This document shows, in pieces, positions 7,841-64,000 of a DNA stretch of 64,000 nt (its first letter is position 1; the number at the start of each line of letters is the position of its first letter). The translations under genes were made by a program, and so were the position numbers. The notes beneath the pieces are model-generated. The model searched no databases and was not told where the DNA came from. It saw only the letters and a program-made list of their open reading frames with translations. The DNA is from Mobula hypostoma. Lineage: Eukaryota. The DNA is taken from assembly GCF_963921235.1 (NCBI RefSeq), contig NC_086108.1, forward strand, positions 92,816,001 through 92,880,000, read 5' to 3'.

Positions 7841-7978
7841 CTTTCCCAGAAACAACATAAAGTCTCCAAAGCAATTGACTGTAGCCACATTCAGCGCATT
7901 ACTGACAATGAGAAAGAATGCTTCTTTGGCTGAGCTGCAGAAATTTGTCCCATTGATCGCCGTTGCAATGTATGCATT
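7841..7978 (-). CDS. SLC44A3: SLC44A3 internal coding exon
   Basis: Acceptor tctctttcAG, donor GTgag. 138 bp, phase 0/0. Encodes [46 protein letters not shown]. Confidence 0.95.
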
Positions 7979-8010
7979 CTGAAAGAGAAAGTGGGAAGCT
8001 TGTATGTATA

Positions 8011-8345
8011 CAACAGGAATTCTGCAGATGCTGGAAATTCAAGCAACATACATCAAAGTTGCTGGTGAACGCAGCAGGCCAAGCAGCATCTATAGGAAGA
8101 GGCGCAGTCGACGTTTCAGGCCGAGACCCTTCGTCAGGACTAACTGAAGGAAGAGTGAGTAAGGGATTTGAAAGCTGGAGGGGAGGGGGAGATGCGCATC
8201 TCCCCCTCCCCTCCAGCTTTCAAATCCCTTACTCACTCTTCCTTCAGTTAGTCCTGACGAAGGGTCTCGGCCTGAAACGTCGACTGCGCCTCTTCCTATA
8301 GATGCTGCTTGGCCTGCTGCGTTCACCAGCAACTTTGATGTATGT
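8011..8345. mobile_element. Fold-back (palindromic) Penelope-derived non-autonomous insertion
   Basis: Perfect inverted repeat 8046-8345 centred on gatgc|gcatc. 14-bp TSD agcttgtatgtata (7997-8010 and 8346-8359). Arm nearly identical to the Penelope 3' end at 29767-29920. Confidence 0.92.
8250..8285 (+). ncRNA. Minimal type I hammerhead ribozyme motif (mirror copy on - strand at 8106-8141)
   Basis: agtc-CUGACGA-agggucucggccu-GAAAC-GUC-gact: stem I agtc/gact, intact core, short stem II, loop-less ACGU stem III. This matches the minimal hammerheads known from Penelope-like element termini. Confidence 0.78.
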
Positions 8346-8554
8346 AGCTTGTATGTATAATGAGGTTATTGAAGAAGCATTGTTCAAAGGAACATTTTGC
8401 AAATGCCTCCCTTTGTGCCTTTCTGACCATAAAGTAATTATCACAGCAATTGCAATAAACACACCTACTCAATGTTCTCTATTTGTTGCTCATAACACAA
8501 CATCAGTTAATCTTCACCTCTTCGGCAGCTCATTCAATGGTTCACCTTCAATAT

Positions 8555-22059: not shown

Positions 22060-22625
22060 AAACACAAGGTGAAAGGTGAAACTGGGAGATGGGGGAGGGG
22101 GTGAAGTAAAGAGCTGGGAAGTTGATTGGTGAAGAGACAAAGGGTCCTTTCTCCAGCCTTTCATCTCTTTCACCAATCAACGCCTCAGTTTTTTATGTCA
22201 CCCCACCCCCCCCTCCTGGTTTCACCTGTCCCCTGCCATCTTGTACTTCTTCCACCCTCTTCCCTCCATTTCTTACTCTGACTTCTCCTCTTCCTGTCCA
22301 GTCCTGATGAAGGCTCTTGGCCCAAAACATCGACTGTTTACACTTCTCCATAGATGCTGCCTGGCCTGCTGAGTTCCTCCAGTATTTTATGTATACTGTT
22401 CTATGTTCTAAGTACAGCATCACTGTGTAGGAAGAAAGAATTAAAAGGAATAGTTTGACAACACACGCCAAACACTGGAGGAACCCAGCAAGTCAGGCAG
22501 CATCTATGGAGAGGAATTAACAATCAACGTTTTGGGCTGAAACTCTTCATCAGGACCAATCCTGATGGTCCTCCAGCATTTTGTGTGTTTCGCTCAATGT
22601 TTCTGCATCCGAGGAATCTCTTGTG
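22060..22625. mobile_element. Older fold-back Penelope terminal fragments with degenerate hammerhead motifs
   Basis: 22060-22230 is an imperfect inverted repeat. cagtcCTGATGAaggctcttggcccAAAACatcgactg at about 22299-22336 (+) and a reverse copy at about 22522-22557. Confidence 0.7.
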
Positions 22626-29325: not shown

Positions 29326-29766
29326 GATTTTTTTTTTAAAAAGATCATAACACTTAGAATGAAATTTCAGCCCATCAACAAACTGACATCCAGATCCCAA
29401 TCCATCAACATCTGTGCAACTGCATGCCAATCCATCATCACTTCCAGAACTGAGTCCATAAGCACCTTTGGAAAGGGATCACAGTCTGTCAGGAGCTGTG
29501 CATTCAGATCCCAGCCTCAGAGAATTTGTCTGATGCATCCAGATAGAACGCTTTCTATGGTGCACTGATAAATGCAAGATGCCAACTTTCTTTAGCCTCC
29601 TAAAATAGAGGCACTGTTGAACTTTCTTGGCTGTGACATCTAGGACAGGCTATTGGTTATGTTCATTCCTAGAAACTTGAAGCTCTCAACCCTTTTAATC
29701 TCAGCACCATTGCTAGAGAGAGGAGATGTGCGCTGCCACCTTTCCTGAAATCAATGACCAGATCTT

Positions 29767-30875
29767 CAAGCAACATACATCAAAGTTGCTGGTGAACGCA
29801 GCAGGCCAGGCAGCATCTGTAGGAAGAGGTGCAGTCGATGTTTCAGGCCGAGACCCTTCGTCAGGACTAACTGAAGGAAGAGTGAGTAAGGGATTTGAAA
29901 GTTGGAGGGGGAGGGGGAGATCCAAAATGATAGGAGAAGACAGGAGGGGGAGGGATAGAGCCAAGAGCTGGACAGGTGATAGGCAAAAGGGGATACGAGA
30001 GGATCATGGGACAGGAGGGCCGGGAAGAAAGACAAGGGGGGGGTGACCCAGAGAATGGGCAAGAGGTATATTCAGAGGGACAGAGGGAGAAAAAGGAGAG
30101 TGAGAGAAAGAATGTGTGCATAAAAATGAGTAACAGATGGGGTACGGGGGGAGGTGGGGCCTTAGCGGAAGTTAGAGAAGTCAATGTTCACGCCATCAGG
30201 TTGGAGGCTACCCAGACGGAATATAAGGTGTTGTTCCTCCAACCTGAGTGTGGCTTCATCTTTACAGTAGAGGAGGCCGTGGATAGACATGTCAGAATGG
30301 GAATGGGATGTGGAATTAAAATGTGTGGCCACTGGGAGATCCTGCTTTCTCTGGCGGACAGAGCGTAGATGTTCAGCAAAGCGGTCTCCCAGTCTGCGTC
30401 GGGTCTCGCCAATATATAAAAGGCCACATCGGGAGCACCGGACGCAGTATATCACCCCAGTCGACTCACAGGTGAAGTGATGCCTCACCTGGAAGGACTG
30501 TTTGGGGCCCTGAATGGTGGTAAGGGAGGAAGTGTAAGGGCATGTGTAGCACTTGTTCCGCTTACAGGGATAAGTGCCAGCAGGGAGATCAGTGGGGAGG
30601 GATGGGGGGGACGAATGGACAAGGGAGTTGTGTAGGGAGCGATCCCTGCGGAATGCAGAGAGAGGCGGGGAGGGAAAGATATGCTTAGTGGTGGGATCCC
30701 GTTGGAGGTGGCGGAAGTTACGGAGAATAATATGTTGGACCCGGAGGCTGGTGGGGTGGTAGGTGAGGACCAGGGGAACCCTATTCCTAGTGGGGTGGTG
30801 GGAGGATGGAGTGAGAGCAGATGTACGTGAAATGGGGGAGATGCCTTTAAGAGCAGAGTTGATAGTTGATAGAGT
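29767..30875 (-). mobile_element. Young 5'-truncated Penelope-like element (GIY-YIG endonuclease + 3' terminus with hammerhead motif)
   Basis: ORF 30162-30941 contains FTCESTGVIYCVRCSRCGLLYIGETRRRLGDRFAEH...HFNS...EQHLIFRLGSLQPDGVN. Hammerhead core at about 29833-29868 (-). 12-bp TSD tgaccagatctt (29755-29766 and 30876-30887) inside a Rex/Babar-like fragment. Confidence 0.93.
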
Positions 30876-32560: not shown

Positions 32561-32589
32561 ATATTGAGATATTGAGAAATAAATATCTC

Positions 32590-33006
32590 AATATGAGAAT
32601 AGGTTGAGTGAACTCGGACTTTTCTCCTTGAAGCGATGGAAGATGAGAGGTGACCTGATAGAGGTGTATAAGATGATGAGAGGCACTGATCGTGTGGATA
32701 GTCAGAGGCTTTTTCCCAGGGCTGAAATGGTTGCCACAAGAGGACACAGGTTTAAGGTGCTGGGGAGTAGGTACAGGGGAGATGTCAGGGGTAAGTTTTT
32801 TTTAACTCAGAGAGTGGTGAGTGCGTGGAATGGGCTGCCAGCAACGGTGGTGGAGGCGGATACGATAGGGTCTTTTAAGAGATTTTTAGATAGGTACACG
32901 GAGCTTAGTAAAATAGAGGTCTATAGGTAAGCCTAGGACATGTTCGGCACAACTCTGTGGGCCGAAGGGCCTGTATTGTGCTGTAGGTTTTCTATGCTTC
33001 TATGTT
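32590..33006 (+). mobile_element. Young CR1 3' end
   Basis: ORF 32604-32930 LGLFSLKRWKMRGDLIEVYK...QRVVSAWNGLP, then a (ttctatg)n tail. Confidence 0.88.
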
Positions 33007-50647: not shown

Positions 50648-51900
50648 CAACACGAAGAAATCTGCAGATGCTGGAAATCCATGCAACACACTCAAAATGC
50701 TGGAGGAAAGATGATGGAAAGGAATAAACAGTCGACATTCTGGGCTGAGACCCTTCATCAGGACTGTAAAAAAAAATGAGAAGTCAGAGCAAGAAGGTGG
50801 GTGGGGGGGGAGAGAAAGAAATACAAGGTGTAGGTGATCGGTGAAACCGGGGGGGGGGGGGGAGGGGTGAAGTAAAGAGCTGGGATGTTGATTAGTGAAA
50901 GGATAAAAGGCTGGAGGAGGGGGAATCTGATAGGAGAGGGCAGAAGACCATGGAGAAAAGGGAGGGAGGAGCACCAGAATGGGGTGAAGGGCAGGAAGGA
51001 AAAAGGAGAGACAGGGAAATAGGAATGGTAAATGGTGAAGGAGGGGTTTGGGCAATCACCGGAAGTTCGAGAAATCAATGTTCATGCCATCAGGTTGGAG
51101 GCTACCCAGAAGGAATATAAGGTGTTGCTCCTCCAACCTGGTGTGGCCTCATCACGACAGTAGAGAAGGCCACGGACTGACATGGCAGAATGGGAATGGG
51201 AAGTAGAATTGACATAGGTGGCTACCGGGAGATCCCACTTTGTACTGGCGGATGGAGCACAGGTGTTCGGCAAACTACGTCAGGTCTTGCCAATATACAG
51301 GAGGGGCACCGGATACAGTAGATGACCCCAGCAGACTCACAGGTGAAGTGTCCCCTCACCTGGAAGGACTATTTGGGGTCCTGAATGATAGTGAGGGAGG
51401 AAGTGTAGGGGCATGTGTGGCACTTGTTCCGTTTGCAAGGAAAAGTACCAGGAGGGAGATCAGTGGGGAAAGATGAACGAACAAGGGAGTTGCATAGGGA
51501 GCAGTCCCTGCAGAAAGCAGAAAGTGGGGGAGGGAAAAATGTGCTTGGTGGTGGGATCCCTTTGGAGATGGTGGAAGTTACGGAGAATTATGTGCTGGAT
51601 GTGGAGGCTAAAGGAGTGGTAGGTGAGGACAAGAGGAGCCCTATCCCTGGTGGGGCATCGGGAGGGTGGGGTGAGGGCAGATGTGCGCAAAATGGAAGAG
51701 AAGAGGGTGAGGGCAGCGGTGATCGTGGAGGAAAGAAAGCCCCTTACTTTTAAGGAGGAGGAGATCTCATTCGTTCTGGAACGAAAAGCCTCATCCTGAG
51801 TGCAGATGTGGCGAGGATGGAGGAACTGAGAGAAGGGGATGCCATTTCTGCAAGTGCCAGGGTGCTAAGGGGCATAGAACTGATAGCTGTGAGAATCACT
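50648..51900 (-). mobile_element. Older Penelope-like element fragment nested in a CR1 3' end
   Basis: Homologous to 29767-30875 (LVLTYH…IILRNFHHLQRDPTTKHIF). ggaatttctt duplicated at 50638-50647 and 51901-51910. Degenerate hammerhead at about 50729-50766 (-). Confidence 0.85.
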
Positions 51901-58984: not shown

Positions 58985-59970
58985 CCCGGCCACACCGGAT
59001 GCAATAGATGACCCCAACAGACTCACAAGTGAAGTGTTGCCTCACCTGGAAGGACCGTTTGGGGCCCTGAATGGTGGCAAGAGAAGAGGTGTAGGGACAG
59101 GTGTAGCACTTACGCTTACAGGGATAAATGCCGGGTGGGAGGTCCGTGGGGAGGGACGTGTGGACCAGGAAGTTGCAGAGGGAATGATCCCTGCGGAAAG
59201 CAGAGAGGGGTGGAGAGGGAAAGATGTGCTTAGTTGTGGGGTCCTTTTGAAGGTGGCGGAAGTTGCGGAGGATAATGTGCTGGATCTGGAGTTGAGGACA
59301 AGGGAACTCTGTCCTGCTCCTGGTGTGGTCTCCTCTACATCGGTGAAACCCGACGCAGATTGGGGGACCGCTTCGTTGAGCAGCTCCGCTCCGTCCGCCA
59401 CAGCAGACTGGATCTCCCAGTTGCCACCCACTTCAACTCTGCTTCACATTCCCATTCGGATATGTTCACACATGGCCTCCTCTACTGCCAGGATGAGGCT
59501 AGGCTCAGGTTGAAGGAGTAACACCTCATATATCATCTGGGTAGTCTCCAGCCCCTTGGCATGAACATTGAATTCTCCAACTTCCGGTAATTCCCTCCCC
59601 CTCCTTTCCCCCATCCCAGTTTCACTCTGTCCCCTCCCCCGGCTACCTACCACCTCCTTCATGGTTCGGCCTCCTTCTACTACCCATTGTGTTTTCCCCT
59701 ATTCCTTCTTCACCTTTCCTGCCTATCCCCTCCCTGCTTCCCCTTTCCCACCCCTTTATCTTTTCCCTTACTGGTTTTTCACCTGGAACCTACCAGCCTT
59801 CTCCTTCCCACCCTCCCCCACCTTCTATAGGGCCTCTGCCCCTTCCCTCTTCAGTCCTGACGAAGGGTTCCGGCCCGAAACGTTGACTGATCATTTCCAC
59901 GGATGCTGCCCGACCTGCTGAGTTTCTCCAGCGTGTTGTGAGTGTTGCTTTGACCCCGGCATCTGCAGAG
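58985..59970. mobile_element. Penelope-like element with inverted 5' segment
   Basis: 58985-59310 matches the element on the - strand; 59315-59970 continues on the + strand (YIGET…, 3' terminus). Confidence 0.82.
59851..59890 (+). ncRNA. Minimal type I hammerhead ribozyme motif
   Basis: tcagtc-CUGACGA-a-ggg(uuccgg)ccc-GAAAC-GUU-gactga: 6-bp stem I, intact core, GUU cleavage triplet. Confidence 0.75.
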
Positions 59971-62419: not shown

Positions 62420-63782
62420 AGGAAAACACACAAAACGCTGGAGGAACTCAGCAGGCCAGGCAGCATCTGCGGAAAAGATGTTTCAGGCCAGGATCCTTCA
62501 TTGGGACTGGAAAAAGAAAGAAGAAAAGTCAGAGTAAGAATGTGGGGGGGGGGGGGAGGAGGGAGGAAGAAGTACAAGGTGGTAGGTGATAGGTGAAAGT
62601 GGGGGAGGGGGAGAAGTGAACTAAACCTTTACCAAACCTATTCTATTTCTTTTTAGTATATGTTGAGGGGAGCGGAGTCAACGACACTAATGGTTCTTTT
62701 TTTTTACGTTTCACAACAGCCCATGTCTTTTTTTTCCTGTAGTTTAGTTGGTTAGTCTTGTTAGATTAGTTTTTTTGGGGGGTATATATATTTTTTTCTT
62801 TTTTTCCTTTTTCATGTTAATTTGTTTATATATAATATTTGTATCCTGTAAGATTGGGAGGTTTAATATCCATGTACTGGGTTTATATTTATATATGATA
62901 ATTACAACAATGTAATCCCAATAACTTTGTATGATTACTATGTTATGTTAATCTTTATCATTATGACACTAATAAAAAGATTGAAAAAGGAAAAGAGAGG
63001 TGAACTAAAGAGCTGGGAAATAGATTGGTGAAAGAGATAAAGAGCTGCTGAAGAGGGAATTGGATATGAAAGAGTAGAAGACCGTGGAAGAAAGGGAAAA
63101 TGGAGGAACACCAGAGGGAGGTAAATGGGCAGGTAAGGTGATAAGGTGAGAGAGGGAAACAGGAATGGGGAATGGTGAAGGGGGCGGTGCATTACTGGAA
63201 GTTCAAGAAATTGATGTTCATGCCATCAGGTTGGAGACTACCCAGATGGAATATAAGGTGTTGCTTCTTCAACTTGAGTGTGGCCTCGTTGTGGCAGTAG
63301 AGGAGGCCGTGGACTGACATGTCAGAATGGGAAGGGGAACTAGAATTGAAATGGGAGATCACGCTTTTTCTGGCAGTAGGTGCTCAGTGAAGATGTCTCC
63401 TAATCTACGTCGGGTCTCTCTGATATACAGGAGGCCATGCCAGGAGCACTGGATGCACTAGGTGACCCTAACAGACTCACAGGTGAAGTGTCGCCTCACT
63501 TGGAAAGACTGGGGCTTTGAATGGTAGTGAGGGAGGAGGTGTAGGGGCAGGTGTGGCACTTGCATGGGTAAGTACCAGGAGGGAGATCATTGGGGAGGGA
63601 CGAATGGACAAGGGAGTCACGGAGGGAGCGATCCCTGTGGAAAGCCGAAAGTGAGGGTGGAGGGATAAGACTGGTGGTGGGGTCCCGTTGGAGATGGCGG
63701 AAGTTATAGAGAATTATGTGCTGGACGCAGAGGCTAGTGGGGTGGTAGGTGAGGACAAGAGGAACCCTATCTCTAGTGGGAT
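62420..63782 (-). mobile_element. Penelope-like element fragment, interrupted at 62626-62994
   Basis: Homologous to 29767-30875 across the GIY-YIG region and 3' terminus. Confidence 0.83.
62626..62994 (+). mobile_element. L1/Tx1-like LINE 3' UTR
   Basis: T-rich UTR ending AATAAAaagattgaaaaaggaaaa. 15-bp TSD gagaagtgaactaaa / gagaggtgaactaaa (62611-62625 and 62995-63009). Confidence 0.68.
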
Positions 63783-64000
63783 GCTCAGGAACTTCATTAG
63801 AATCATGTAAAACCTCACCACAGGTGAATTAAGACCTTATGACAAATATTTCACATCATCAAGGTAACAAGCACTACATGTGGAAAACAGAAATCTCACC
63901 AGCACCTTCTCTAGGTAAATATTGGCCTAGTCAGCAATGCCCACGTCCCTCAACACTAATGAATCAAAACATCAGCATCTTGCAATTGTTATTCCAGTTT

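Follow-up and report, generated by a model that had tools for sequence, protein, structure and literature searches.

The closest described counterparts of the structure analysed here are Penelope-like elements (PLEs) that carry an endonuclease (EN+). In the available parts of Arkhipova et al. 2013 (PMC3846280) and Craig et al. 2021 (PMC8557442), the inverted-pLTR anatomy of these elements comprises an inverted, 5'-truncated copy, a 30-40-bp tail at one end, one target site duplication (TSD) and palindromes at the junction, and the accessible text of the latter paper calls the way in which PLEs make inverted and tailed insertions undefined. According to the accessible sections of Frangieh et al. 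2024 (PMC11167929), the Anolis element Poseidon_Ac cuts and extends both target strands in vitro, its reverse transcription starts at two points of the RNA, one on each side of the tail, the enzyme is modelled as a dimer, and the template is uncleaved hammerhead RNA. Metazoan PLEs also carry minimal hammerhead ribozymes (min-HHR), and pairs of such motifs on opposite strands, 100-700 bp apart, were noted earlier in Schistosoma (available portion of Cervera and De la Pena 2014, PMC4209133). The statement of the sequence-only reading that PLEs give inverted copies and carry minimal hammerheads agrees with what is accessible of PMC3846280, PMC8557442 and PMC4209133.

The locus lies in a 64,000-nt stretch of the Mobula hypostoma genome (NC_086108.1, positions 92,816,001 to 92,880,000; called the window, and the source of all coordinates below that carry no locus label). 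A 335-bp insert stands between two identical 14-bp TSD copies (7997-8010 and 8346-8359) and consists of a 185-nt left arm (8011-8195, element sense on the minus strand) and a 150-nt right arm (8196-8345, element sense on the plus strand, assigned by sequence comparison), both of them the same PLE 3' end and both facing outward. The left arm keeps the tail, 35 nt on the minus strand (8011-8045) that are unpaired in the palindrome; the right arm has none. The rest of the insert, 8046-8345, is an exact palindrome, in which 150 complementary pairs enclose no loop, pair 151 is the first mismatch, and the centre, between 8195 and 8196, has templated sequence on both sides. The perfect loop-less 300-bp palindrome and the exact TSD around the insert, both of which had been reported earlier, were thus found as described. 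A looser palindrome reaches 8037-8354 at 99% identity because the TSD resembles the continuation of the element: on the primer strand the right copy equals it at 7 of the first 9 bases. A scan of the whole window for short inverted repeats returned one other, at 32561-32594 (13-bp arms, 8-nt loop), which is AT-rich and probably a chance occurrence.

As in the inverted-pLTR EN+ PLEs, the arms are arranged head to head within one TSD, the tail is present at one end, and the junction is palindromic (PMC3846280, PMC8557442, as far as their available text goes; a tail is also found in the accessible part of PMC11167929). The locus differs from these elements in that its arms are tiny and have no ORF and that the join is spacer-less; the ray family differs in its TSDs, 13-15 bp as against the 8-10 bp given for rotifer PLEs in the same texts, and in arm lengths that are measurably coupled. 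The two start sites bounding the tail and the uncleaved template of Poseidon_Ac fit the arms of the locus, whereas two-armed products like those of the ray family are not described in the accessible sections of PMC11167929.

Judged by its sequence, the insert can be identified as a young, heavily 5'-truncated two-armed insertion of an EN+ PLE, and the locus is almost certainly an ordinary PLE insertion. The EN+ PLE features found are reverse transcriptase and GIY-YIG in a longer copy, a tail at one end, an inverted truncated copy within one TSD, and a terminal hammerhead motif. The longer family copy (L184) encodes RVT_1 (E 9.5e-6) followed by a C-terminal GIY-YIG (E 4e-4) in one 533-aa frame, with scores just below the Pfam cut-offs (25.9 against 29.6 and 21-22 against 22.6). 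The PLE origin proposed earlier is borne out by these domains and by the published anatomy. The full-length source element was not found among the four long copies examined, all of which are truncated. Another long family copy contains a 213-bp unit in about 3.6 tandem repeats within the ORF region (L185:2927-3702).

The family is large: a 25-nt hammerhead word has 24,528 and 24,337 exact matches, 48,865 in the genome. The left arm is 100% identical to three unlinked genomic loci and shows 97-99% identity to the majority of the 42 listed matches (scores were computed for 40 of 86 candidates). Its identity to 29765-29921 is 96.2%, so the copy at 29767-30875 (minus strand, one tail-less arm, its own 12-bp TSD) is a relative from another subfamily and not the source of the insert. 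The earlier derivation of the arms from the 3' terminus of that family holds for the family and fails for that copy as the source. Older relatives of the element (70-80% identity), some apparently inverted pairs, occur in the window at 22300-22559, 50657-51898, 58993-59969 and 63158-63783.

Head-to-head pairs of the hammerhead word were found at 206, 141 and 82 loci with spacings of 100-130, 131-160 and 300-330 nt, respectively. The first 50 loci of each spacing class (150) were parsed; 38 were dropped as complex or overlapping (35 with unexplained spacers >40 nt, 3 overlapping) and 112 simple ones were kept. One tailed and one tail-less end were present in 104 of these 112 two-armed inserts, the asymmetry of our locus, and this layout is the norm of the family. 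A TSD of at least 8 bp flanked 90 of the 112 inserts, as compared to none of the 112 flank-swapped controls, and in 58 it measured 13-15 bp. A separate sample comprised 56 loci met in succession from the beginning of contig C1; an adjacent inverted partner was present in 32, and the 24 single-armed copies began at either site (10 and 14).

The same layout occurs at twenty times the size in a two-armed insertion on contig C5 with arms of about 2.7 kb, 98.6% identity and a short non-matching centre (L183:222-5955). At the centres of L036, L080, L122, L136, L148, L166 and L181, which were dropped as complex, short arms enclose recurring non-arm sequence common to the loci, possibly the 5' region of the element after a template jump. 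Multiple fold-back arrays of the hammerhead-bearing end were seen at L091/L092/L106 (contig C2, 12242900-12243234), L087/L088, L112 and L126.

Loop-less centres are not confined to our locus. Two of the 56 sampled loci have one (perfect over 34 and 51 bp), and rough extrapolation from this fraction suggests that the genome may hold hundreds to a few thousand loop-less copies; counting from three centre words gave at least 59 such centres, this locus among them. A centre one base away from ours occurs at five near-twin loci, whose inserts measure 329-343 bp, whose perfect arms extend over 154, 63, 156, 143 and 144 bp, and each of which has its own distinct TSD. A second centre word recurs at 53 loci, and a blunt control centre two bases further, the sole blunt control word counted, at none. 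The exact centre of the locus, a blunt join or 2-nt slip and not a microhomology join, occurs once in the genome, even with one mismatch allowed. As centres recur at 5 and 53 loci and the centre of the locus is unique, the palindrome forms anew with every insertion, for the most part where the template has self-complementary words, and the locus represents a blunt or slipped variant. The view of the palindrome as an exceptional structure is not supported, given the near-twins and the many two-armed and loop-less copies.

These counts bear on two further explanations. Perfect palindromes are prone to artefacts, and this one could be a fold-back formed during library preparation or assembly; against this, the inversion stops at the TSD, the insert follows the one-tail rule and TSD length of the family, and the five near-twins have TSDs of their own, so that we consider an artefact highly improbable. 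The occurrence of several inserts of similar size (329-343 bp) could be taken to mean that a MITE-like or retrozyme-like unit moves as a palindrome. Such a unit is hard to reconcile with a centre found once, with near-twins that differ from the locus in centre and tail-less boundary, and with TSDs ranging from 9 to 16 bp, and we give it hardly any credence. As to the specific candidates, a MITE or mobile palindromic unit was rejected on finding no multiple copies with the same centre, ends and fixed short TSD, and a non-LTR retrozyme on finding the two hammerhead motifs on opposite strands with no tandem unit.

Of 1208 subfamily-diagnostic sites, 1102 are alike in the two arms, where 708 would be expected, therefore both derive from one source. 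Their lengths are also coupled. The inner arm ends lie at most 11 nt apart in 20/42, 17/33 and 7/37 inserts of the three parsed classes, compared to 4.6, 2.7 and 1.4 under a uniform null; an alternative null, independent draws from the observed length distribution, gives 0.1-16% per locus. It must be noted that the idea of coupling came from the parsed inserts; it held in the separately drawn sample, which was not selected for pairing. There, with 28 of the 32 partnered loci used and 4 with internal fragments left out, the ends of the two arms are correlated (Spearman 0.64, n=28), with 6 of 28 pairs ending within 2 nt of each other (0.8 expected by permutation, p ~1e-5). Among the 104 inserts with one tail, the tail-less arm was longer in 52, the tailed arm in 44, and the two were equal in 8; either arm can be longer, therefore neither is always a copy of the other. 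Microhomology at the outer junctions came to 1.3 and 1.5 nt against 0.8 and 0.7, a small excess over 71 and 68 junctions. A transcription-start hotspot near element position 184-194, to which the 131-160 class and an initiator-like word had pointed, was rejected: 0 of 89 unselected arm ends fell at 180-200. Our literature search, which covered the main text of openly accessible papers, found no report of arm-length coupling, and bioRxiv 10.64898/2026.07.22.740005 had no passage on palindromes.

Two ways of making such arms have to be weighed. In L1 twin priming one RNA is reverse-transcribed from primers on two target strands, and an inverted segment results within one TSD. The two L1 segments come from separate regions of the RNA, whereas both arms of the ray PLE copy the same 3'-terminal region, and therefore form a palindrome. 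The family data speak for a single RNA primed from both target strands rather than for simple fold-back. Twin priming with joint termination covers in one step the single source of the arms, the coupling, the fact that either arm can be longer, the starts of the single-armed copies, the microhomology and the in vitro behaviour of the Anolis PLE. It fits less well with the centre of our locus, which is not a microhomology join and is unique genome-wide, and fold-back followed by central deletion would likewise couple the arms.

Palindromes can be revised by later central deletions. In the fold-back account, a target-primed cDNA bends back where a short word is self-complementary and serves as its own template until some 30 nt before its start is reached; central deletions at a later time make for the asymmetry of most copies, and the locus is an unrevised survivor. 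Such a course of events would explain the single source, the excess of equal arms and the centres on self-complementary words, and scar-like spacers of at least 10 nt are present at 12 of 25 symmetric junctions; self-priming was, moreover, proposed for PLE junction palindromes in the accessible text of PMC3846280. It needs, however, a second step for the 33 of 104 inserts in which the tail-less arm exceeds the other by more than 11 nt, and again for single-armed tail-less copies with TSDs. Symmetric inserts should also be the younger ones, but their arm divergence is 3.5% as compared to 3.3% in asymmetric inserts, and no age trend in arm symmetry was seen among the parsed inserts. Finally, the tail-less end maps to a reverse transcription start site in vitro (PMC11167929, accessible sections). 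Altogether we think fold-back unlikely, though it deserves serious consideration. Equal-length arms joined via 14-34-nt spacers, several seemingly copied from nearby sequence in the manner of polymerase-theta end-joining scars, were observed at L021, L037, L042, L046, L054, L079 and L147.

The preferred reading, identity as a PLE insertion together with twin priming in broad terms, has in our estimate a probability of about 0.7. In its detailed form, the element endonuclease would nick both target strands 14 nt apart, as the TSD indicates, and each nick would prime reverse transcription on one and the same element RNA. One cDNA would start at the outer start site and keep the tail, the other about 35 nt further in, leaving the tail out. 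Both would stop at the same place, perhaps where the RNA was broken or where two enzymes stalled together, and end joining of the two cDNA ends would give the head-to-head palindrome. The insert would have no selected function, and its hammerheads would be passengers. That this sequence of twin nick, one-RNA priming, common stop and end joining operated here has, we believe, a slightly better than even chance. With more reserve, and at somewhat less than even odds, we propose for the whole family that a dimer of the ray PLE uses both target strands to prime a single RNA at two fixed start sites, that the cDNAs end together and join via 2-4-nt self-complementary words, that hundreds to thousands of perfect palindromes have arisen in this way, and that some of them, possibly this one, alter splicing or yield dsRNA. 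If this is true, the loop-less palindromes preserve a record of the final, unsolved part of the PLE cycle. The locus by itself is of little weight and the family-level result is of more interest: any model of PLE integration has to satisfy the coupling, the one-tail rule and the preference of centres for self-complementary words, and in a family so young, with copies in the tens of thousands, such models can be tested by counting.

The zero divergence of the arms had been ascribed to either a recent insertion or ongoing gene conversion. Recent insertion is supported, since the left arm equals three unlinked loci, as youth predicts. Gene conversion or cruciform repair would also keep arms without a mismatch over 150 bp, but over 113 inserts only 3 private variants are common to both arms against 113 unshared, and identical arms were found in 14 of 112 other inserts. 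Gene conversion is thus largely refuted at the family level and is very improbable here; the young age of the copy is enough to account for the identical arms of the locus.

A minimal hammerhead motif can be read in each arm on core words and stems, as the sequence-only reading had noticed. On the plus strand it occupies 8250-8286, with core words at 8254-8260 and 8274-8281 and a putative cut between 8281 and 8282; its mirror on the minus strand (8105-8141) lies inside the hairpin stem and is the only one in the sense of the SLC44A3 pre-mRNA. Like the metazoan PLE min-HHR, the motif has by its sequence an intact core with an extra base between 9 and 10.1, helices I (short) and II, and a two-base palindromic helix III (15.2-16.2) (PMC4209133, available portion). 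In contrast to the min-HHR of that text, where the pair G10.1-C11.1 is reported conserved, this young subfamily has G-U as the first pair of stem II (8272-8273), and its stem II is only 3-4 bp long. At the corresponding site the G-U allele is present at 95 loci and the G-C allele at 24; the expanding subfamily carries G-U, which suggests relaxed selection on cleavage. The Rfam hammerhead covariance models gave no match, and at its energy minimum 8225-8320 folds into a structure other than a hammerhead (z 0.05). According to the available parts of the papers, min-HHR motifs failed to cleave when present singly (PMC4209133), and cleavage by the Anolis PLE hammerhead required the protein of the element (PMC11167929). 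On these grounds and the G-U pair, the suggestion of a ribozyme masked or released by the hairpin is not supported: the monomeric hammerhead is probably inactive, and cleavage of SLC44A3 RNA by the sense motif appears unlikely. Both arms extend across the putative cut site, as copying of an uncleaved RNA would lead one to expect.

The insert is located next to a coding exon of SLC44A3 (7841-7978, minus strand); on that strand the window has seven matches to SLC44A3 exons. The exon matches Pfam Choline_transpo, is similar to the solved CTL1, and has 100% identity, over 46 aa, with the Mobula birostris protein named choline transporter-like protein 3. Its acceptor AG and polypyrimidine tract (7979-7996, minus strand) read as intact, and 30 nt separate the AG from the insert edge. 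The branch-point consensus is yUnAy. Within 70 nt of the acceptor the inferred empty allele has a single yUnAy, with its A at -34; this candidate branch point, now at 8360-8364 (minus strand), was moved 349 nt further from the acceptor, and the filled allele has none in that interval, while new CAGs appear at -45 and -54. The earlier placement of the insert in the branch-point zone is supported by these positions, and the long pre-mRNA hairpin it had anticipated does dominate the predicted fold, ending about 58 nt before the exon.

It is possible, and compatible with the preferred reading, that the insertion acts as a splicing allele, functional or deleterious, in which the displaced branch point, the two upstream CAGs and 150 bp of dsRNA would cause exon 7841-7978 to be skipped or mis-spliced, or the hairpin to be edited. 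The loss of the sole yUnAy within 70 nt, the new CAGs and the dominant hairpin point in this direction. On the other hand, the polypyrimidine tract and AG are intact and, by prediction, mostly outside the long hairpin, branch-point sequences are degenerate, and the displacement rests on an inferred empty allele; the annotated protein with 100% identity includes the exon, a fact that could stem from either allele. The literature search found no like splicing case, and we regard an effect of this kind as rather unlikely. If the displaced branch point does change SLC44A3 splicing, the insertion would be one more retroelement splice allele. Skipping of the exon, whose 138 nt are a multiple of three, would keep the reading frame.
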